Source: Clostridia bacterium (GTDB taxonomy: Bacteria > Bacillota > Clostridia > UBA1381 > UMGS1253). Taken from it: a stretch of 64,000 nucleotides of DNA. The position numbers and the translations under genes are program-made. Each line of letters begins with the position of its first letter. Position 1 is the stretch's first letter. Location of the stretch: positions 24,054-88,053 of the forward strand of contig JAZNLB010000017.1 in assembly GCA_045578865.1 (NCBI GenBank). The letters are read 5' to 3'. Of this stretch, positions 3,357-49,446 are shown one piece after another. Under the pieces are notes generated by a model. That model made no database searches. It saw nothing but the letters and a program-made list of their open reading frames with translations, and was not told where the DNA came from.

Positions 3357-4824
3357 AAAGTATTATGCAAATCAAGCCGCCTGAGCCTTCGTTTATAATC
3401 CTCGAAAGGGTTTCTTGCAGTTTAATTTGTGCATCATCCGGCATATGTCCAAGTTTCGTTCGCAGTCCTTCATTCACAAGCTCGTGCAGGGATTTTCCGA
3501 AAATATTAGACTCCCATATCTTTTTCGGGTCGGCATCAAATTCGCTGAGCAAATACGATACGAGTTCCTCCGATTGTTTTTCCGAGCCGACAATCGGGCT
3601 AACCTCGGTTTCAATGTCTGCACGAATCATATGGATAGATGGTGCACTTGCGCGCAATTTAACGCCGAAACGGTTACCCTGGCGCACAATTTCCGGCTCC
3701 TCCAAGGTTAACTCATCAATCGTCGGCGTGACAATCCCATAGCCTTTTTGGCTGACCTCCTGCATTGCGGCTGCAACACGGTCATAATTTTTCTTTGCTT
3801 CCGCCAAAGTGCATATCGTTGAAATCAACGCCGCTTCTCCCTCAATTTGCAAACCCGTCAACTGCCCAAGCACATCATAGAGCAAGTTTTCGGGCGTAGT
3901 AAGCGAAATCACCGCACTGCCGTCACCTAAATCAATTCTGCTCGCCTCTGCCTCGCTGACAAAGTCATACATCTCCAGTTTTTCCGCTGCTGCGCGGATG
4001 TCACCGATAAATCGAATGTCCTGCGTTGCGGCAAGGGCGGCATCATACATCTGCGTTTTGAGAGGATGCTCTGTTTCCAATCCTTCAATCCAACGCGGAA
4101 CTTTAATTAAAATTTCACTAACCGGAAAACGATAGAGCACTTGCTCTAAAATGCGCGTAATATCTCCCTTCGTCAGCTCGGAGCAGTTTACGGGCAACAC
4201 CGGCTCGCCGTATTTTTCACTAAGTGATTGTGCAAGCGCAAGCGTGGATGGTGCATCCGGATTTTCGCAATTCAAAAGCACGGCAAAGGGTTTGCCAATA
4301 TGCTTTAACTCGCCGATTACTCGCTCCTCCGCCTCCACATACGCCTCTCGTTCAAGTTCAGAAAAACTTGCATCCGTCGTTACCACAAGACCGATGGTTG
4401 CATGTTCAAATATCACCTTTTGCGTACCGATTTCTGCCGCGCGGTCAAACGGAATTTCATAATCGTACCACGGTGTCTGCACCATGCGCGCCTGCCCGTC
4501 CTCCGTATGTCCGACTGCGCCGTCCACCATATAACCGACACAGTCAATCATGCGTACACGCATCGTCAAACCGTCAGCATATGTCAGTTCCACGGCCTTA
4601 TTAGGAACAAATTTCGGTTCCGTAGTCATAATGGTTTTACCTGCCGCACTCTGCGGCAGTTCGTCACGCGCTCGAGCTGCCGCAAATGCATCGCTCATTT
4701 CCGGCAGCACCAGCGTATCCATAAACTTCTTAATTAAGGTCGATTTTCCCGTACGCACGGGACCGACCACGCCGATGTAAATGTCGCCCTGCGTACGCTG
4801 AGCAATATCCTGATAGATGTTCAT
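3355..4824 (-). CDS. spoIVA: Stage IV sporulation protein A (spore coat basement-layer ATPase)
   Basis: 489 aa. The start MNIYQDIAQRTQGDIYIGVVGPVRTGKSTLIKKFM (Walker A) and the overall length are characteristic of SpoIVA. Confidence 0.9.
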   Translation of the reverse strand: MNIYQDIAQRTQGDIYIGVVGPVRTGKSTLIKKFMDTLVLPEMSDAFAAARARDELPQSAAGKTIMTTEPKFVPNKAVELTYADGLTMRVRMIDCVGYMVDGAVGHTEDGQARMVQTPWYDYEIPFDRAAEIGTQKVIFEHATIGLVVTTDASFSELEREAYVEAEERVIGELKHIGKPFAVLLNCENPDAPSTLALAQSLSEKYGEPVLPVNCSELTKGDITRILEQVLYRFPVSEILIKVPRWIEGLETEHPLKTQMYDAALAATQDIRFIGDIRAAAEKLEMYDFVSEAEASRIDLGDGSAVISLTTPENLLYDVLGQLTGLQIEGEAALISTICTLAEAKKNYDRVAAAMQEVSQKGYGIVTPTIDELTLEEPEIVRQGNRFGVKLRASAPSIHMIRADIETEVSPIVGSEKQSEELVSYLLSEFDADPKKIWESNIFGKSLHELVNEGLRTKLGHMPDDAQIKLQETLSRIINEGSGGLICIIL

Positions 4825-4918
4825 AACCCTCCGACCTTTCCGTTTGCAAATTCTAAGCGCTGTTGCTTTTGTACATATATATTTTGCCTGTCCCCGGATT
4901 ATGAATTTTTTACATAAA

Positions 4919-4943
4919 AAAAGAAGAGCCTCAGCTCTTCTTT
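4919..4943 (-). terminator. Terminator of pgsA, overlapping its stop codon
   Basis: On the minus strand, aagaagagc-tgag-gctcttctt is followed by TTTTTAT. Confidence 0.6.
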
Positions 4944-5476
4944 AACTGTTTCTGATATTTTATGTATGCGGCGATGTAAGAAACCAACGCCATATAGTTC
5001 ACGCCGACAATCGAAACCGCCACCCAAAAGGCATGAAACTCGCCAAGCGGAATTACACGAGGAAACAATAAAATCAAAGTGCAGGTGAAACTCACAAAAC
5101 AAGCAATCTTGCCAAACCAATTTGCCTGCGTAATGATACCGCTTTTATAAAGCACCAGCGCACCGATGCCCAGCAAAAGTTCCTTAATGCCGACCAAAAT
5201 CACAACCCAAGCCAGAGAGTAGTGTGTGTGAAATGCCAAACAAATGAGCGCCGTAAGTTGCATAGCTTTGTCTGCAATCGGGTCAAGCGCTTTGCCCAAA
5301 TTTGTAACCATATTAAATCTTCTGGCGATAAACCCGTCGAGCACATCCGTAACAAAGGCGACAACCAAAACCGCCATAGCATAATACTGCGCTCCTACAA
5401 CCGGCATCATATACACCAGCAAAAATACAGGCATCAGACAAAGTCTTATACAGGTCAGTATGTTTGGTATGCTCAT
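4931..5476 (-). CDS. pgsA: CDP-diacylglycerol--glycerol-3-phosphate 3-phosphatidyltransferase
   Basis: CDP-alcohol phosphatidyltransferase motif DVLDGFIARR...G..LDPIADK; multi-TM protein of 181 aa. Confidence 0.85.
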   Translation of the reverse strand: MSIPNILTCIRLCLMPVFLLVYMMPVVGAQYYAMAVLVVAFVTDVLDGFIARRFNMVTNLGKALDPIADKAMQLTALICLAFHTHYSLAWVVILVGIKELLLGIGALVLYKSGIITQANWFGKIACFVSFTCTLILLFPRVIPLGEFHAFWVAVSIVGVNYMALVSYIAAYIKYQKQLKKS

Positions 5477-5498
5477 ACCAATCCCTCCCCAAAAAGAT

Positions 5499-6470
5499 TT
5501 ACCAACTCATTACCTTGCAAAGACGAATTAAATCCGGATTTAACTCCTTCTTCATAGCAAGACCTTCATCAATATCCACATCACAGACTCTGTGATTTTT
5601 CACGACAATGACACGATTGGATTTTCCCTCCATCAACGCCTCAACAGCCTTTAAGCCCATTTCACTTGCACGCACACGATCTTCTACCGTCGGCGAGCCG
5701 CCGCGCTGCATGTGTCCCAAAATCGTTGCGGTGGTTTTAATGCCCGTGCGGTTTTCAATCTCTGCCGCCATTTCCATCGCACCGCCGACACCCTCGGCAA
5801 CAATCACAAGATAATGCGTTTTCCCGCGGTTTTTGCCTTCGATAATCGGGCGCAATACATCTTCGTCAAAATCAAATTTCTTTTCCGGAATAATTACGGC
5901 TTCCGCCCCGCAGGCAATGCCGGCATGCACGGCAATGTAGCCCGCATCACGCCCCATAACCTCGATAACGGAACTGCGCTCATGGCTCGTTGCCGTATCA
6001 CGAATTTTGTCAATCGCATCCTTGGCGGTATTGAGCGCCGTATCGTAACCGATGCAATACTCCGTACAACCGATGTCATTGTCAATCGTTGCCGGGATAC
6101 CAACAGTTTTCACGCCGGCTTTTGCCAGGTCACGCGCACCGCGAAAAGAACCGTCTCCTCCGATAACCACCAGACCGTCGAGTCCAAAGATTTTCGCAAT
6201 CTCCGCACCGCGTTGTACACCCTCCGGCGAAGAAAATTCCGGACATCTTGCCGTTTGCAGAATTGTACCGCCGCGCTGGAGCGTTTCCGATACACTTCTC
6301 GCATTCATTTCAAATATATCACCGTTAATCAGACCTTTATAGCCTTTGCGAATACCCATGACCTGAATACCGTTGTACACTGCGGTTCGCACAACACTTC
6401 GCACGGCTGCATTCATACCCGGCGCATCACCGCCGCTGGTAAGCACACCGATTTTCTTTATCGTTGCCAC
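5499..6470 (-). CDS. pfkA: ATP-dependent 6-phosphofructokinase
   Basis: IGVLTSGGDAPGMNAA, GGDGS and MGR motifs are present. I place the start at GTG 6470, 8 nt after AAGGAGG. The ORF track extends to 6500. Confidence 0.9.
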   Translation of the reverse strand: MATIKKIGVLTSGGDAPGMNAAVRSVVRTAVYNGIQVMGIRKGYKGLINGDIFEMNARSVSETLQRGGTILQTARCPEFSSPEGVQRGAEIAKIFGLDGLVVIGGDGSFRGARDLAKAGVKTVGIPATIDNDIGCTEYCIGYDTALNTAKDAIDKIRDTATSHERSSVIEVMGRDAGYIAVHAGIACGAEAVIIPEKKFDFDEDVLRPIIEGKNRGKTHYLVIVAEGVGGAMEMAAEIENRTGIKTTATILGHMQRGGSPTVEDRVRASEMGLKAVEALMEGKSNRVIVVKNHRVCDVDIDEGLAMKKELNPDLIRLCKVMSW

Positions 6471-43848: not shown

Positions 43849-43950
43849 TAGGTTTTTTGTTAAGTCTGTATGACAAATTTTGCATTTTTTGCATCTGAAA
43901 AGCACACGGCGCATACGATAAAACAGATAGTTTGGACGGGAGGTGACACT

Positions 43951-44199
43951 ATGCCGGATAAAAACAAACCCAACCTGTCGGGCATTGAAGAAAAAACTCT
44001 GCGTGAAATGCGTGACTTTGCCGCTACGCGGGAAGGCGTTTCCCTACGCAAAAAACTGGCAGGTCTTGACCCGAATAAATTGATGAAGGCATTTTCTTCG
44101 CTGGATAAAGCCACCGTGGAAGCACGCCTCAAAAACCTCGATGCTAAGCAAATACGCAAGGCCATGGAAAACAACGACTTTCTAGACAAACTCAAATAA
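43951..44199 (+). CDS. Small hypothetical protein (82 aa), first gene of a probable spoIID operon
   Basis: ATG 43951 follows GGGAGGTG. The protein is charged and helical-looking, with no motif I recognise. Confidence 0.55.
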   Translation: MPDKNKPNLSGIEEKTLREMRDFAATREGVSLRKKLAGLDPNKLMKAFSSLDKATVEARLKNLDAKQIRKAMENNDFLDKLK

Positions 44200-44212
44200 A
44201 GGGGTGAACAGT

Positions 44213-44539
44213 ATGGCAGACGGATTAGACAGCGCAATCGATACATTAAAAGAAATCTTAAACAGTCCGGATGCGGCGCAAAACATATCTGCCATGCTCT
44301 CCGGCTTTGGACTGCCGGGCGCAGAAAAACAAGAAGAGGATACACTGGGTTTTTCACCGCAAATGCTCGCTAAGGTTATGGATGCATACAAATCTCTCGG
44401 CAAAGAAGACGACCGCCGTGTAACACTTCTGCGTGCGGTGCGCCCGTTTATGCGCGAAACACGCAAAGGCGAAGTGGATTTGGCCATCCGCCTTCTGACA
44501 ATTTTAAAATTGATGCCGCTATTAAAGGAACTGAACTGA
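44213..44539 (+). CDS. Small hypothetical protein (108 aa)
   Basis: ATG 44213 follows AAGGGGTG. The C-terminus is LLRAVRPFMRETRKGEVDLAIRLLTILKLMPLL. Confidence 0.55.
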   Translation: MADGLDSAIDTLKEILNSPDAAQNISAMLSGFGLPGAEKQEEDTLGFSPQMLAKVMDAYKSLGKEDDRRVTLLRAVRPFMRETRKGEVDLAIRLLTILKLMPLLKELN

Positions 44540-44540
44540 T

Positions 44541-44789
44541 ATGTACAGACGCTACTACAAATACAACGACCCTACGCCGGGACAACGGCGCATACCACCG
44601 CAACCACCCGCGCCGCCGCCAAAGCCGCAACCTCCGCTGCCTGCCATTGCACAGGATTTTCTGTCCGGCATGGCAAAAGATGACCTGATACTGGCAGGCC
44701 TTTTGCTGCTTTTGCTGCTCGGCGAGGAAAAAGAAAACATCGACTTGCCGCTTGCGGCGTCGCTTTTATATTTACTACTCAAAAAATGA
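44541..44789 (+). CDS. Small proline-rich / leucine-rich hypothetical protein (82 aa)
   Basis: It contains PPQPPAPPPKPQPPLP followed by DDLILAGLLLLLLLGEE and LLYLLL. Its start is 1 nt after the previous stop. Confidence 0.5.
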   Translation: MYRRYYKYNDPTPGQRRIPPQPPAPPPKPQPPLPAIAQDFLSGMAKDDLILAGLLLLLLLGEEKENIDLPLAASLLYLLLKK

Positions 44790-44798
44790 GGGCTTCCG

Positions 44799-45773
44799 AT
44801 GAAAAAACTGCTTGGCCTGTTTTTACTTTATACCTTTATTGTGCTCGGCGTACCGATTTTGCTTGTGCTTTTGCTGCGCGCAAAGCCGGAAATCAAAAAA
44901 AGCACCGAGCCGCTGGATTCCATTACCACCTATGTCGCTGCAGAAGACGCAGTGCAAACACTCGACTTTTCCGAATATTTAAAGGGTGTTGTCGCCGCAG
45001 AAATGCCGGCTTCATTTCATACGGAGGCCCTGCGTGCACAAGCGGTCGCCGCACGCAGTTATGTCCTGTACCGCCGCAACGGATACTTGCGTGACGGCAT
45101 CCCCGAAGCACACCATGGTGCATTGGCGTGCACCGACAGTGCCCACTGCAAAGCGTGGAAAAGCCCGGACGAGCTTCGCAACGCCTGGGGCGCTGACTAC
45201 GAAGTGCATATGCAAAAAATTGCTGCCGCAGTAGAAGATACCGCCGGTATCGTACTTACTTATGACGGTGAACTGGTCAACGCCGTGTTTCACTCCACTT
45301 CTTCCGGTCGAACAGAAAGCGCCAAGGATGTGTGGGGCGGCGATGTGCCCTATCTCGTCAGCGTTGCCAGTTACGGAGACGAGCTGTCCCCTCGATTTTC
45401 CTCCAAGGTATCCTTAAGCGCGGAAGAATATAAACAAAAGCTGCAAAGTGTATACCCCGAAGCACAGTTTGCCGACGGCGATGCGCTCGTCGGAGAAATT
45501 CTGCGTTCTGCCGCAGGCGGTATCAAAGAAATTCAGACGGGCGGAGTCCGTTTGACCGGCACACAGTTTCGCAATCTCTATGGCCTGTGCAGTACCAATA
45601 TTGAGTTTACGCAAAGTGCAAACTCCATTACCATGACCGTCACGGGTAACGGACACGGCGTAGGCCTGAGCCAGTACGGCGCAAACTATCTTGCAAATCA
45701 GGGAAAAACCTACGAAGAAATTTTAAAAACATATTATACGGGAGTTTCGGTGGAAACCTATAAAGAAAAATGA
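44799..45773 (+). CDS. spoIID: Stage II sporulation protein D (SpoIID/LytB domain lytic transglycosylase)
   Basis: N-terminal TM segment, then AVFHSTSSGRTESAKDVWG and GNGHGVGLSQYGANYLA motifs. Confidence 0.9.
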   Translation: MKKLLGLFLLYTFIVLGVPILLVLLLRAKPEIKKSTEPLDSITTYVAAEDAVQTLDFSEYLKGVVAAEMPASFHTEALRAQAVAARSYVLYRRNGYLRDGIPEAHHGALACTDSAHCKAWKSPDELRNAWGADYEVHMQKIAAAVEDTAGIVLTYDGELVNAVFHSTSSGRTESAKDVWGGDVPYLVSVASYGDELSPRFSSKVSLSAEEYKQKLQSVYPEAQFADGDALVGEILRSAAGGIKEIQTGGVRLTGTQFRNLYGLCSTNIEFTQSANSITMTVTGNGHGVGLSQYGANYLANQGKTYEEILKTYYTGVSVETYKEK

Positions 45774-45887: not shown

Positions 45888-45916
45888 TTGGCAAATCCAC
45901 TATTTTGTGCTAAAAT
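45888..45916 (+). promoter_or_regulatory. Promoter TTGGCA-17 nt-TAAAAT
   Basis: ttggca aatccactattttgtgc taaaat lies about 40 nt upstream of ATG 45955. Confidence 0.5.
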
Positions 45917-45954
45917 TTAATCATAGAAAACACATAGGAAGAAAAGGTGACATC

Positions 45955-46302
45955 ATGGACAAAGAATTGTATACGACAAAAAAAGTAACAGCCGAAGAAG
46001 ACGAAAAAACCTTTCTGCTTGAATACTACATAACAGAGGATGAAATGCCGCTCGGCGACAGCCTTTCGGTAATTTCCTACGGCGTGGAGATTGTGCTTAA
46101 AAGCCGTTTGCAAATCGAAGCCTCCCGCGCAAGTTTTTTGTTTACGGACAAGCAGCAGGCACTTTCGTTTGCCGAACTTTTGGCAAACACACACACATTT
46201 CCGGTATCGCTTTCCGGCATCGTGGAGGATTTAACCGCCGGAGAAGAGATCCCAAAAACCTCGCCTGCGCCAAAGGTGCAATGCTTTACGGCAACGGCAT
46301 AA
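45955..46302 (+). CDS. Hypothetical protein (115 aa; possibly DUF6514-like)
   Basis: ATG 45955 follows AAAGGTGA. It has its own promoter and terminator. The family guess is from memory only. Confidence 0.55.
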   Translation: MDKELYTTKKVTAEEDEKTFLLEYYITEDEMPLGDSLSVISYGVEIVLKSRLQIEASRASFLFTDKQQALSFAELLANTHTFPVSLSGIVEDLTAGEEIPKTSPAPKVQCFTATA

Positions 46303-46324: not shown

Positions 46325-46356
46325 GGGTGTAAAATTTAGATTTTACACCCTTTTTT
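46325..46356 (+). terminator. Terminator, variant of the GGATGTAAA hairpin family
   Basis: gggtgtaaaat-ttag-attttacaccc followed by TTTTTT. Confidence 0.8.
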
Positions 46357-46457: not shown

Positions 46458-46466
46458 TGGTATAAT
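46458..46466 (+). promoter_or_regulatory. Extended -10 element TGGTATAAT upstream of the islet's first gene
   Basis: It lies 48 nt upstream of ATG 46514. The RBS GGGAGG is at 46501-46506. Confidence 0.5.
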
Positions 46467-46513
46467 ATAAACATTCGCAAAAGCGAAAATTTATATTAAC
46501 GGGAGGAACAATT

Positions 46514-47749
46514 ATGTATCAGAAAAATTATTATACCGAATCCGCAAAAACGCGGCTAATGCTGGACAAAAATGCGAGAAAAGAGTATAATGAGAAAAAA
46601 GGAAGTATTTTCGATGAGGACGACATTGCAGACTCTGCGCTTAGTTATCTCTACAACGATGCAAACAAAATAAAAACGCAAGACTTTCTTAAAAGCAACG
46701 GATTTCCAACGGCGCAGCAACGAGCACAAAATCAACAGTTGTATGGTGCAGCGAAAGAACAAAAACAAATCCGAGATTTGCTGAAAAGCACCGCGAAAAA
46801 CACATTAAATCCCAATGTTACCAAACTCGACCTTGGATTTTTGCAAGGTATATACGGCGACGAAGAAGGCGATCGCGAATACCAAAAGATGTTGGCTAAT
46901 GCAAGCCAAAGACAGAGCGATTTGTATAATGCGTTCCAAGGCTCGCCGTTCGAGAGCGGGCTAAAATCAGTCTTGCCAATCAGCAAAAGCACAGAGGAGA
47001 TAAAGCCGGCTGTCCGCCGCTTTGCGGATACTACAAATGATGAAATTGGACATACTGCCATTCAAGATTTCGATAAGGAATACGACAGACCAAAGTATGC
47101 CGACAGCAAAACGGTTGCTTCAACATTAAAAGTTGGTGCGTATAGCACAAATAAGCCGGAAAACTCATTGCCGGCTATTGGTTCTGGGCCTGATGGCACA
47201 TGGAAAAAAACCGGTTTTTGGCCATGGCAACGCACATACGAAGTTGCACCGCCGAGATGGGAAGATCGTTATTATTGGAATAATAGTTTTTATCAGGAAA
47301 GAACAAATTGTTATGCATATGCTTTGAATTTAAGAGTAAATCCAAGGACGGATAAGAATTTTGGCAATGGGATAACAGCGGACTTTGGTTTGCCGGTCGG
47401 TATGATTTGTGCGGGAGTTTTGAAAGAAAATCAAATCTCAAGAGGAAACACCTTAGCATTGGTGCGATATGATGTTGAAGAACTTGGATGGACGATGGAA
47501 AGTGCAACACTTGATACACCTGTGCCTGAAGGCAAATGGAAAATTGCAATTGCAATTGCCCCTGGACAACAATATCATTTCTACAGACAAGACCTTGATG
47601 GAACATGGTCGCATAAACCTGGTCATAATCAAGCAACACAACTTGACGCATCCGGAAATATTATAACAAATCCGGAAACTGCCGATAGAAAGTATAAGGG
47701 TGTAAATTATAATGTATTCTGCGGATATTTCATTATCGGTCCTAAATAA
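46514..47749 (+). CDS. Hypothetical 411-aa protein with a C-terminal papain-fold (NlpC/P60-like) Cys/His signature; candidate toxin/amidase
   Basis: There is no signal peptide or TM segment. The C-terminal 140 aa or so contain ERTNCYAYALN and QYHFYRQDLDGTWSHKPG (His-x11-His), arranged like a Cys-His-His/Asp hydrolase. Confidence 0.5.
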   Translation: MYQKNYYTESAKTRLMLDKNARKEYNEKKGSIFDEDDIADSALSYLYNDANKIKTQDFLKSNGFPTAQQRAQNQQLYGAAKEQKQIRDLLKSTAKNTLNPNVTKLDLGFLQGIYGDEEGDREYQKMLANASQRQSDLYNAFQGSPFESGLKSVLPISKSTEEIKPAVRRFADTTNDEIGHTAIQDFDKEYDRPKYADSKTVASTLKVGAYSTNKPENSLPAIGSGPDGTWKKTGFWPWQRTYEVAPPRWEDRYYWNNSFYQERTNCYAYALNLRVNPRTDKNFGNGITADFGLPVGMICAGVLKENQISRGNTLALVRYDVEELGWTMESATLDTPVPEGKWKIAIAIAPGQQYHFYRQDLDGTWSHKPGHNQATQLDASGNIITNPETADRKYKGVNYNVFCGYFIIGPK

Positions 47750-47905
47750 AAACGAAAGGTGATTTGCAATGAAACGCATTGTTTGCTACTGTTTAATTTT
47801 ATGTATGACTATCCTGGGTTTATCGGCATGTGCACCGCAGGAACCAACGGCGGATGTGCATGCAATACAGCTTGGTGATACGGAAAAACAAGTCATTGCA
47901 AAAGC
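47750..47905 (+). repeat. Copy 1 of a duplicated 5' cassette of about 155 nt (RBS + lipoprotein signal peptide + first 40 or so codons)
   Basis: By-eye alignment with 48832-48987 gives about 90% identity. Both copies start with aaacgaaaggtgatttgcaatgaa. Confidence 0.85.
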
Positions 47906-48359
47906 CGGTTATCCGGACGGGTATGTTGGTTCAGAGGAAGATGTTTATTTTTACCATACGAATGAACAACCGACACAATATAAGTTTTTGTGGTTTTGCG
48001 AGGGTAAAGTATGCATTATTGCCTCTATGAGCGACGGTGTATTTACGCAGTGGTCAGTTTCGCCGACATATTCTTTCAAATCGCTTGCGGAAGTGCAAAA
48101 TTTTTCTTTCTGGAATGAGAAGATGGCCCCTTATGACTTAATAAGTTATTTAGGATTTGTCTACGATTCGGTTGAACACTCCGGCTTCGGTATTATGAAT
48201 ACAACTTACACTTATGCCCTGGAAAACGAAAGCTGGTTGAAGGTTACATTTTCGGCTATGCAACTGGAAAGTGCTATATTCGTAAATAGAAATGGTGAAG
48301 AATCGATTTTATGGCAAACGGGCGTGTTAAAGAAAGATGGGACACGCGTTTTAGAATAA
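47769..48359 (+). CDS. Lipoprotein, paralogue A (candidate immunity/inhibitor protein)
   Basis: The signal peptide MKRIVCYCLILCMTILGLSAC has the lipobox LSAC. It is followed by IQLGDTEKQVIAKAGYP, a BamE/BLIP-like opening motif. Confidence 0.7.
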   Translation: MKRIVCYCLILCMTILGLSACAPQEPTADVHAIQLGDTEKQVIAKAGYPDGYVGSEEDVYFYHTNEQPTQYKFLWFCEGKVCIIASMSDGVFTQWSVSPTYSFKSLAEVQNFSFWNEKMAPYDLISYLGFVYDSVEHSGFGIMNTTYTYALENESWLKVTFSAMQLESAIFVNRNGEESILWQTGVLKKDGTRVLE

Positions 48360-48418
48360 CGCGCCATTCGGATACATATCTTTCGGTTGCCAATTCACAA
48401 TTTTTAGGAGGTATTTAT

Positions 48419-48844
48419 ATGTATTATCTGTTGAATTTTACACCGTTTTTAATAAACATTCTTGCCTTGCCGTTACTTTGCAATTATGGGCACGAAATTG
48501 CAATATGTAAATTTGATTTATACGACATACAGTTTACATTTATCGTATTTTTCGTGCCGATTTATTTGCTTGTTTTGAACATAATTGCAGTCAACAAAAA
48601 AAAGAAAAAAATCGGCACTTGCATTTTAACTATGTGTCTGGTTATTTTTTCTAATGCTTTGCTGAGATATATTGATTGGGGATTAAGCTCCGGACTGTTA
48701 TTGAATCCGGACAGCGAAACCATCATGGCTGCTATATATGAAGGGACAGTTTTCCCCATGCTTATAGCGACATTGGGCATGTTGATTTTTTATTGCATCC
48801 GAAGATGTTTCTTAAAACGAAAGCAAAGCTTAAACGAAAGGTGA
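48419..48844 (+). CDS. Small 4-TM membrane protein (141 aa)
   Basis: ATG 48419 lies 8 nt after AGGAGG. It has four hydrophobic segments and a KKKKK loop encoded by an A8GA7 tract. The track start at 48311 overlaps the previous gene. Confidence 0.65.
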   Translation: MYYLLNFTPFLINILALPLLCNYGHEIAICKFDLYDIQFTFIVFFVPIYLLVLNIIAVNKKKKKIGTCILTMCLVIFSNALLRYIDWGLSSGLLLNPDSETIMAAIYEGTVFPMLIATLGMLIFYCIRRCFLKRKQSLNER

Positions 48845-48987
48845 TTTGCAATGAAGCGCTTTGTTTGCTACTATTTAATTTTATGTATGACTATCCTGGG
48901 TTTATCGGCGTGTGCACCGCAGGAACCCACAGCGGATGTGTATGCAATACAGCTTGGTGACACGGAAAAGCAAGTGGTAGAAAAGGC
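48832..48987 (+). repeat. Copy 2 of the duplicated 5' cassette
   Basis: See 47750-47905. Downstream of about codon 45 the two genes diverge strongly at the nucleotide level. Confidence 0.85.
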
Positions 48988-49408
48988 GGGAAAACCACAT
49001 TACAAACTGGGCCTTGGCTATGACATCTTTGGTTATTTAGTCAATCAACTCGAAGCAGAGGAGAAGTTCATTTGGATTCGTGATAACAAAGTTGTCATGA
49101 TGGCAACTTGTATAAATCTCGAGTTTTTAGAGTGGGAAATTGATGATTCCTATGTATTTGAACCCATAAAACAACCCAAGGATATTTCGGTGTGGGAACC
49201 CGGACTGGACTTGTTTGATATTATCGGTTATTTCGGTCCGGAGTTTTCATATGATCATGGTTTGCCAACAAGTTTTCTTACATATGAACTTGCGGATGGC
49301 GGGAGTTTGAAAATAAGATTTTGGTCTGATTTAATTCGAGATGCAATTTACATTGAAAAAGACGGCACCGAAACTGTGCTGTGGGACCTAGACAACTATA
49401 CGCATTAA
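48851..49408 (+). CDS. Lipoprotein, paralogue B (candidate immunity/inhibitor protein)
   Basis: It starts MKRFVCYYLILCMTILGLSACAPQEPTADVYAIQLGDTEKQV. It is collinear with paralogue A along its whole length, but the body is divergent. Confidence 0.7.
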   Translation: MKRFVCYYLILCMTILGLSACAPQEPTADVYAIQLGDTEKQVVEKAGKPHYKLGLGYDIFGYLVNQLEAEEKFIWIRDNKVVMMATCINLEFLEWEIDDSYVFEPIKQPKDISVWEPGLDLFDIIGYFGPEFSYDHGLPTSFLTYELADGGSLKIRFWSDLIRDAIYIEKDGTETVLWDLDNYTH

Positions 49409-49411
49409 AGT

Positions 49412-49446
49412 AAAGAGGCAGTTTGAGTAAACTGCCTCTTTTTTTA
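49412..49446 (+). terminator. Terminator of the islet operon
   Basis: aaagaggcagttt-gagt-aaactgcctcttt followed by TTTTT. Confidence 0.85.

Follow-up and report, generated by a model that had tools for sequence, protein, structure and literature searches.

Polymorphic toxins influence how bacteria compete in gut and environmental settings, and newly defined toxin domains have tended to reveal new enzymatic killing modes. Several of the described groups are built on the papain fold. NlpC/P60 enzymes with their catalytic residues in the canonical order are peptidoglycan peptidases, whereas those with a permuted order act on lipids, and NlpC/P60-superfamily toxins with phospholipase activity exist (PMC12994826). 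Among C-terminal toxin domains Tox-PL1, Tox-PL-2 and Tox-PL3 are defined by the signatures NC-H-DxQ, C-NxxH-DN and C-[DE]H-[DE]-R, respectively (PMC3482391). Here we describe a gene from a Clostridia bacterium that on balance is probably the toxin gene of a small mobile polymorphic toxin-immunity cassette, its product carrying a papain-fold cysteine hydrolase domain at the C-terminus. The gene lies at 46514..47749 on the (+) strand of a 64-kb stretch of contig JAZNLB010000017.1 (positions 24,054 to 88,053), which is referred to below as the window. It encodes 411 amino acids (aa), and its ATG is the first start codon after a stop. A preliminary description, made from the sequence alone, had delimited exactly this open reading frame (ORF). 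It had proposed an unknown N-terminal region without export signal or delivery motif, fused to an NlpC/P60-like Cys...His-x11-His domain, and had suggested an effector or toxin function.

Conserved residues and extent of the C-terminal domain

A search of 5.8 billion proteins yielded 122 matches, nearly all of which covered only residues ~246-411 of the query. In an alignment of 120 homologues the three residues of the proposed pattern were almost invariant: Cys266 was found in 117, His355 in all and His367 in 119 of the sequences. Asp320 (119/120) and Asp378 (118/120) were conserved to the same degree, and Arg358, Lys368, Gly370 and Pro387 did not vary at all. Cys266 lies within ERTNCYAYALN, and both histidines lie within QYHFYRQDLDGTWSHKPG. 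Judged by this alignment, the Cys/His/His pattern is real and far beyond chance. The order of the residues and the distance of 12 residues between the histidines stand as first described. His355 follows Cys266 by 89 residues rather than by about 80, and the domain comprises ~166 aa (246-411), slightly more than the ~140 residues originally allotted to it. The consensus of the family can be written as NCYAYA ... QPG ... D ... DYH[WF]YRQD.DG.WSHKPG ... D ... P ... R.

When a profile of the family was compared with 1.84 billion cluster representatives, 5,779 clusters (formed at 50% identity) matched at E<=1e-3 and 1,530 at E<=1e-30. Nothing meaningful was found in scans of the toxin protein with Pfam, NCBIfam, PADLOC and PHROGs; in particular, the Pfam search returned no NLPC_P60 match, so that the family named at the outset was not recovered in this way. 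A sequence search of the PDB gave no match with either the single protein or a profile of 104 members. The same 104 members were scanned for co-occurring domains, which gave matches to 65 families in all, and the 25 commonest of these were considered. No Pfam or NCBIfam model covered the domain in any of the 104 members, apart from a sub-threshold match to DUF7689 over the HWYRQ..WSHKPG region in 10 of them (best E 1e-3). DUF7689 may be a distant relative of the domain; a literature search gave no mention of it. No paper containing the motifs WSHKPG, NCYAYA, NCYNYA or HWYRQD was found in a full-text literature search. A weak match to the Pfam model 2C_adapt fell on the NCYAYA segment itself and was regarded as spurious. 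By these sequence comparisons, the C-terminal domain represents a large unannotated family without a Pfam or NCBIfam model and without a solved structure.

Some variation within the family deserves mention. In ~70% of the members three to five cysteines co-occur at positions corresponding to residues 310, 337, 403 and 407 (also 288) of the query, in C-C-C(-C) patterns, which suggests disulfides or a metal site. The window protein has retained Cys403 and has no cysteine at 310, 337 or 407, and its Firmicute clade lacks most of these residues. Many short homologues (P0023, P0024, P0030, P0035, P0038, P0071 and others) begin with a Cys-rich motif, CQCxxxCxxxPxxxSxFCxxH. A subgroup of ~285-300 aa (P0059, P0072, P0086, P0112, P0115 and others; locus L059), which includes a protein of Candidatus Thiomargarita nelsonii, has an N-terminal region of its own of ~90 aa that reads ..AEVDDAFYKSYGEGT.KGLDP.L....GRRKLTL. 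One match is annotated to the rotifer Rotaria magnacalcarata (P0120) and one was found in a metagenome-assembled genome (MAG) of Hodarchaeota (Asgard; L049); both may be contamination.

Predicted fold

The structure of residues 240-411 was modelled with AlphaFold2 (AF2) from the 104-sequence alignment. The model reached a mean predicted local distance difference test score (pLDDT) of 90.2 and a predicted template modelling score (pTM) of 0.86, and a papain-like alpha+beta fold is confidently predicted. Cys266 is the first residue of a helix (266-270), His355 lies in a strand (353-359) and His367 in the following one (365-367), past a DLDG turn. The model thus places the cysteine at a helix N-terminus and the histidine in a strand, as the preliminary description had supposed.

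Foldseek found no match to the PDB at E<=1e-3. Nearly all the PDB matches that it did list were papain-fold thiol hydrolases, namely structures of C39, USPL1, CHAP endolysin domains, IdeC, NlpC/P60 and AvrRpt2, and the best of them was the C39 domain of PCAT1 (E 3e-3, probability 0.92, template modelling (TM) score 0.29-0.33). Solved NlpC/P60 and CHAP structures appeared only at E 0.13-1.4 with TM scores of 0.2-0.3; the NlpC/P60 structures among them (2hbw, 3h41, 4xcm, SagA, MepS and LytE) were weak matches, with E 0.24-1.4 and TM 0.2-0.29. No Tae protein was matched in the PDB by sequence, and there was no Tae entry among the 50 best Foldseek matches listed. An hhalign comparison of the family alignment with MepS of Escherichia coli gave a probability of 0.06%, and phmmer with MepS detected no NlpC/P60 protein in any fetched locus. 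What survives of the NlpC/P60-like assignment is therefore the papain-like fold, the spacing of the histidines and the canonical order of the residues; membership of the family was borne out neither by these comparisons nor by Pfam.

Much closer matches were found among predicted structures of viral proteins (BFVD): F2Y2U4 (E 4e-14, TM 0.78), M1HB16 and the Hokovirus protein A0A1V0SF80. To the extent that predicted models can be compared, we are confident that these proteins, which include proteins of giant viruses, are true relatives of the domain.

Occurrence on toxins of other lineages

In 12 of the 104 scanned members the domain lay C-terminal to an RHS core. It was likewise found on PAAR proteins, on a VgrG and on Big_2/Ricin secreted proteins. 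A single C-terminal domain is thus carried by diverse N-terminal architectures, as is looked for in polymorphic toxins. Further members were located beside such toxins: P0009 and P0025 are orphan C-terminal modules 3' of complete RHS toxins, P0007 is a PAAR protein adjoining vgrG, and P0114, which has a faint VgrG-type (Phage_GPD) match, is encoded ~1.9 kb downstream of another Phage_GPD gene.

When a single genome of each species was scanned with a 16-sequence alignment, 79 loci from many lineages were obtained, among them Clostridia, Bacilli, Erysipelotrichaceae, Treponema, Acidobacteriota, Planctomycetota, Bacteroidota, Pseudoalteromonas, Thiomargarita and the Hodarchaeota MAG. In Bacillota the domain mostly formed the end of signal-peptide proteins of 740-810 aa or of RHS proteins. 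The early idea of an effector or toxin has gained strong backing from these fusions with RHS, PAAR and VgrG proteins and from the immunity-type genes that adjoin the domain.

The secreted carriers of 740-810 aa (L015, L021, L023, L028, L029 and others) came from Bacilli, Erysipelotrichaceae and Mollicutes. The one that was scanned, from L015, weakly matched Peptidase_C10 (streptopain-like) over the N-terminal half (E 0.017), where a second papain-fold domain is possibly present.

Lipoproteins and other partner genes

The gene of lipoprotein 1 begins 20 nt past the toxin stop codon (Table 1). Such tight linkage was common: in 34 of 37 Bacillota-type loci an ORF started <=60 nt past the toxin stop, and among these 34 downstream ORFs 31 encoded a hydrophobic N-terminus and 23 a lipobox-like motif. 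The Bacillota partners belong to several unrelated families, some of them weakly BamE-like. Weak BamE-like matches are also shared by both lipoproteins of the window, in lipoprotein 1 over its N-terminal domain. The lipoproteins beside the toxin most likely protect the producer. An immunity-type gene directly downstream, orphan immunity genes and toxin remnants (see below), which together mark polymorphic toxin loci, are all present, with the protection itself being a prediction.

Lipoproteins 1 and 2 are 43% identical over the whole protein. Their genes begin with the two copies of a direct repeat of 159 nt, which are 91% identical and span the ribosome binding site (RBS), the signal peptide, the lipobox and the first ~46 codons. 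The shared 5' ends and diverged remainders of the genes suggest that recombination or gene conversion has acted on the 5' ends. A relative of lipoprotein 2 with 65% identity follows a toxin remnant in another locus, L011. Between the two lipoprotein genes lies a membrane ORF (48416-48844) whose product is hydrophobic in four segments, ends in a basic C-terminal tail and matched no family in the Pfam, NCBIfam, PADLOC and PHROGs scans. These features are holin-like, only generically so; the protein may take part in toxin release or in immunity, or be unrelated to either.

A different partner was noticed in the non-Bacillota loci (L046-L089), where the papain-fold domain is paired with a second one of ~115-150 aa, which opens with '..hhhFSGRPNPxW' and has no Pfam match (for example L054 6431.., L078 6427.. 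and L052 6442..). A hidden Markov model (HMM) of this FSGRPNP domain matched 22 downstream proteins and 15 toxin polypeptides, and in the toxin ORFs of L074, L075, L078, L085, L086, L089 and others it forms one chain with the peptidase. A signal peptide is present in some copies and absent from many. The FSGRPNP domain might act as an inhibitor or pro-domain, or represent an immunity family. Since its HMM did not match the lipoproteins of the window, the immunity families are not unified.

The N-terminal module and related loci

In the AF2 model of the full-length protein the first 245 residues were predicted with uncertainty (pLDDT 33-68): four helices (9-29, 38-61, 67-97 and 117-142) of low confidence were followed by a disordered stretch (143-245). 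No homologue of the N-terminal 245 aa was found in the database of 5.8 billion proteins, and no relatives were detected in the metagenomes of the Joint Genome Institute (JGI), whether a protein or a 3-sequence alignment served as query. Relatives surfaced only through the genomic contexts of the few homologues of the lipoprotein.

One of these relatives lies in locus L093, which comes from an independent sample. The locus contains an ortholog of the toxin with 78% identity, followed by an ortholog of lipoprotein 1 with 86% identity and then by a homologue of the membrane ORF, so that the order of the three genes has been kept. Between the two toxins the catalytic domain is 91.5% identical with a ratio of nonsynonymous to synonymous substitutions (dN/dS) of 0.19, and lipoprotein 1 gave a dN/dS of 0.20. 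The linker diverges fast, its aligned part (aa 188-245) showing 60% identity and a dN/dS of 0.37. By these sequence ratios the cassette is under purifying selection.

A second full-length protein with the N-terminal module was found in L091. The first ~230 aa of this 493-aa protein (3823-5304) are 38% identical to residues 3-204 of the window protein (E 3e-37), and its C-terminal half is unrelated. One N-terminal region is thus joined to alternative C-terminal domains, as in polymorphic toxins, with L091 being the single example. The gene is followed by one for a protein of 223 aa with a transmembrane anchor (5304-5975) and then by an extra lipoprotein-1-like gene. An ES...GIGQV motif in the C-terminal domain is reminiscent of lytic transglycosylases; Pfam gave no match at E<=1 and we make no such claim.

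Loci L011 and L092 belong to the same MAG, from another member of the Clostridia, and contain degraded copies of the toxin gene. In L011 one copy (5843-6348, + strand) has an internal deletion that joins residues 15-59 to 302-411 and removes Cys266, and a second (2-410, - strand) is a frameshifted N-terminal copy. In L092 a stub of 113 N-terminal residues remains (4213-4554). Each degraded copy adjoins an intact lipoprotein gene, which is the pattern of toxin remnants with orphan immunity genes as far as sequence can tell.

The N-terminal region, in which no delivery motif had been recognised at first and none was found, can now be described as a modular helical domain that is restricted to one lineage and precedes a disordered linker, with the module also present on the L091 protein. 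Taken together, a conserved N-terminal module, a variable linker, exchangeable C-termini, orphan immunity genes and toxin remnants constitute, at the level of sequence, the signature of polymorphic toxins.

Structure and boundaries of the cassette

The features of the cassette are listed in Table 1. Its G+C content is 0.39-0.42, compared with ~0.46-0.49 in the flanks, and its strand bias is opposite to theirs. In the window the cassette is embedded in a chromosomal region of the order rpoB/rpoC-hydF/G-spoIID-DUF1846, and its neighbours include spoIID (44799..45773) and genes for an SLH protein, for VanW and for 3D/G5 wall-associated proteins. The flanking genes differ among L011, L091, L092 and the window. 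The G+C shift, the bounding terminators and the different flanks give the cassette the character of a mobile island, and the interval of ~46.35-49.44 kb is, in our assessment, more probably than otherwise a small mobile polymorphic toxin-immunity unit that has entered a housekeeping region of the chromosome of a Clostridia bacterium.

Table 1. Features of the toxin-immunity cassette and its borders (positions in the window)
Feature	Position	Strand	Basis
Hairpin resembling an intrinsic terminator, 11-bp stem and T-run; closes the upstream DUF6514 gene; left cassette edge	46325..46350	+	terminator prediction and sequence
TGgTATAAT, extended -10-like, ~50 nt 5' of the toxin gene, without a good -35; promoter candidate only	46458..46466	+	read by eye; unlisted by consensus scan
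Shine-Dalgarno sequence GGGAGG, 7 nt ahead of the toxin ATG	46501..46506	+	sequence
Toxin gene (predicted), 411 aa: N-terminal module, linker and papain-fold domain	46514..47749	+	ORF, homology search, AF2
N-terminal helical module, aa 1-155	46514..46978	+	AF2 and comparison with L091, L011, L092
Linker, aa 156-245, polar, predicted disordered (pLDDT 33-49)	46979..47248	+	AF2 and L093 comparison
Predicted papain-fold Cys-His-His domain, aa 246-411, family-defining toxin domain	47249..47746	+	alignment, AF2, Foldseek
First copy of 159-nt direct repeat	47750..47908	+	repeat comparison
Lipoprotein 1, 196 aa, lipobox LSAC; probable cognate immunity protein	47769..48359	+	ORF, Pfam, homologues, dN/dS
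Small membrane protein, 141 aa from internal ATG (mechanical ORF start 48311)	48416..48844	+	ORF, hydropathy, L093 homologue
Second copy of 159-nt direct repeat, 5' end of lipoprotein 2 gene	48832..48990	+	repeat comparison
Lipoprotein 2, 185 aa, paralogue of lipoprotein 1; second or orphan immunity candidate	48851..49408	+	ORF and paralogue comparison
Hairpin resembling an intrinsic terminator, 13-bp stem and T-run, directly 3' of lipoprotein 2; right cassette edge	49412..49441	+	terminator prediction

Three small ORFs of 109, 111 and 82 aa were noted upstream of spoIID, the 82-aa product being Pro-rich with a hydrophobic tail, and a DUF6514 gene with its own terminator sits between spoIID and the cassette. 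All of these (43870-44789 and 45907-46302) appear to be part of the host chromosome, outside the cassette.

Proposed mechanism and alternative explanations

The following mechanism can be envisaged. Cys266 would act as the nucleophile, activated by His355, and His367 on the neighbouring strand would orient His355; the enzyme would then hydrolyse an amide or peptide bond. The toxin would act outside the cytoplasm of target cells. Because the presumed immunity proteins would be anchored on the outer side of the cytoplasmic membrane, an action outside this membrane is probable. The target there might be the stem peptide or a cross-link of peptidoglycan, as for the NlpC/P60, CHAP and Tae enzymes of canonical order. 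By analogy with these toxins, and in view of the canonical residue order (PMC12994826), peptidoglycan is the most plausible single substrate, which we put forward tentatively and at somewhat less than even chances. We go no further than this because the nearest solved structure is a leader peptidase, wall-binding domains are absent, giant viruses have members of the family and signal-less partners occur. Lipoprotein 1, and possibly lipoprotein 2, would bind the toxin directly and so block its active site. For its export the toxin, which has no leader, would depend on the N-terminal module together with a pathway for which there is no recognised match.

Several observations weigh against this interpretation. 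The Cys-His geometry was read from the secondary structure of the model and not from its coordinates. The best structural match, itself weak (E 3e-3, TM ~0.3), is a C39 leader peptidase and no cell-wall enzyme, and searches with Pfam, NCBIfam, the PDB and hhalign linked the domain to no characterised family of hydrolases by sequence or profile. The window protein differs from the family consensus in having PVG in place of QPG and Gln in place of Asp at position 353. No LysM, SH3b or other wall-binding domain was detected among the family members in the domain scan. The toxin has neither a signal peptide nor a transmembrane segment, its top 19-residue Kyte-Doolittle mean being 1.31, and no LXG, WXG, RHS, PAAR, MuF or similar delivery domain was matched in Pfam at E<=1, in agreement with the absence of an export signal noted at the start; secretion-system genes were not found in the 64-kb window either. 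Finally, about half of the partner proteins in the non-Bacillota loci have no signal peptide. Because of these partners and the giant-virus relatives, the family as a whole need not target peptidoglycan.

The most serious alternative accepts the same toxin-immunity cassette and replaces the substrate: the enzyme would be a protease of an exposed protein or lipoprotein, or an esterase or acyltransferase acting from outside on membrane lipids or lipid-linked precursors. Among solved structures, those that match best are of enzymes that cleave peptides (the C39 leader peptidase, USPL1, which is a SUMO protease, and IdeC), phospholipase toxins are known in the NlpC/P60 superfamily (PMC12994826), wall-binding domains never co-occur with the domain in the 104 members scanned, and the giant-virus homologues and signal-less partners in many non-Bacillota loci point to substrates beyond bacterial walls. 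A lipid substrate is disfavoured by the residue order, which is canonical here and permuted, His before Cys, in the NlpC/P60 enzymes that act on lipids. Immunity by a lipoprotein fits peptidoglycan and other substrates equally and does not discriminate between them. Overall, we judge a substrate other than peptidoglycan for the toxin of this cassette to be unlikely, while giving it serious consideration.

It could also be argued that the gene is an orphan or decaying module that is not exported, has no working delivery and is kept only transiently, and that the lipoproteins act on their own as immunity against the toxins of neighbours. The missing signal peptide, trafficking domain and secretion genes would fit, as would the loss of the Cys266 region in L011 and the 113-aa stub in L092 beside intact lipoprotein genes, and the window protein itself deviates at two family-conserved positions. 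However, the ORF is intact, has a strong RBS and forms its own terminator-bounded unit. Its ortholog in an independent sample has the catalytic domain conserved under the selection described above and shares precisely the two deviations, PVG and Gln353. Moreover, another full-length protein, that of L091, has conserved the N-terminal module, as would be expected of a functional trafficking domain. We consider an orphan or decaying module improbable and give it little weight. A housekeeping or sporulation-associated autolysin, as the SpoIID, SLH, VanW and 3D/G5 neighbours might suggest, is very improbable given the lower G+C content and opposite strand bias of the cassette, the entirely different neighbours in L011, L091 and L092, the absence of the cassette from almost all genomes and of database homologues of the N-terminus, and the presence of the catalytic domain elsewhere on RHS, PAAR and VgrG toxins.

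Comparison with known systems

If a polymorphic toxin-immunity cassette is accepted, its significance lies in both halves of the toxin. The family is linked to RHS proteins and type VI secretion system (T6SS) delivery in Gram-negatives, to secreted proteins with lipoprotein immunity in Firmicutes, and to giant viruses, and once the substrate of the domain is known, thousands of 'hypothetical proteins' would gain an annotation. New folds of protease or amidase inhibitors may be represented by the candidate partners, the BamE-like lipoproteins and the FSGRPNP domain, and the N-terminal module of this leaderless toxin could lead to a mechanism of toxin export in Clostridia that is still uncharacterised. 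A more far-reaching view would be that the C-terminal domain founds an undescribed papain-fold family in bacteria, an Asgard MAG, giant viruses and a rotifer, with a specificity unlike that of NlpC/P60, CHAP and C39 and with dedicated partner or inhibitor families (BamE-like lipoproteins and FSGRPNP), and that the N-terminal module marks a lineage-specific export route for leaderless toxins in Clostridia. As a whole this is doubtful, yet it has a real prospect of being correct.

The NlpC/P60 (MEROPS C40) and CHAP enzymes, including Tae1-4, resemble the domain in their papain-like alpha+beta fold, with the cysteine at a helix N-terminus followed by a histidine in a strand. In MepS (Cys68-His119-His131) the order is likewise canonical and a third polar residue lies on the next strand, 12 positions past the histidine, as here. 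Relatives of these enzymes serve as interbacterial toxins with extracytoplasmic immunity proteins, like the system described. In contrast, similarity of sequence or profile was not detectable, and NLPC_P60, CHAP and C39 models were absent from the matches of the window protein at E<=1 and from the 25 commonest of the 65 families matched by the 104 members, beyond which a stray match in a single member may exist. The distance from Cys to His is 89 residues here and ~50 in NlpC/P60, with an extra helix and strands in between; the invariant Asp320, Asp378, Arg358 and Lys368 are additional compared with NlpC/P60, CHAP and Tae; and solved NlpC/P60 and CHAP structures matched only at noise level. 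Peptidase C39 of the bacteriocin ATP-binding cassette (ABC) exporters (PCAT1, PDB 7n87) has a Cys...His spacing of ~80-90 residues, similar to that found here. On the other hand, there was no Pfam C39 match, no ABC transporter is fused to the domain or adjacent to it in the window, and the third residue is a histidine here, with a conserved Asp further on, compared with an Asp 16 residues past the histidine in C39.

Tox-PL1, Tox-PL-2, Tox-PL3 and Tox-PLC39 (PMC3482391) are C-terminal papain-fold domains of RHS- or T6SS-linked toxins with dedicated downstream immunity genes, as here, and Tox-PL1 shares the 'NC' dipeptide at the nucleophile. The pattern NCYxYA...DYH[WF]YR...WSHKPG...D, however, fits none of the signatures of Tox-PL1, Tox-PL-2 and Tox-PL3. 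Of the Tox-PL1 (PF15644) signature NC and H are present and DxQ is absent, and Pfam gave no match; nor was there any Pfam toxin model among the matches of the window protein or the 25 commonest families of the 104 members. The immunity families also differ, being lipoproteins and FSGRPNP proteins here and Imm35 and Imm73 in the Tox-PL systems.

In overall plan the protein agrees with the LXG toxins of Firmicutes and the type VIIb secretion system (T7SSb): both are leaderless, a flexible linker joins their helical N-terminal module to a C-terminal toxin domain that varies, and an immunity gene follows, and in both one N-terminal module is combined with alternative toxin domains. Differences are the lack of any LXG or WXG100 Pfam match at E<=1 and of ess/esx or T7SS genes in the 64-kb window, and the N-terminal module, which is shorter here (~155 aa) and confined to a few Clostridia MAGs.

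According to its predicted structure, the domain is a papain-fold domain of NlpC/P60-like layout and no demonstrated member of the NlpC/P60, CHAP, C39 or solved Tae families. Save for a recognisable secretion signal, the system has the architecture of the polymorphic toxin-immunity class (sensu Zhang et al. 2012). It therefore adds an unnamed papain-fold toxin family and a new N-terminal module to the established polymorphic toxin paradigm.

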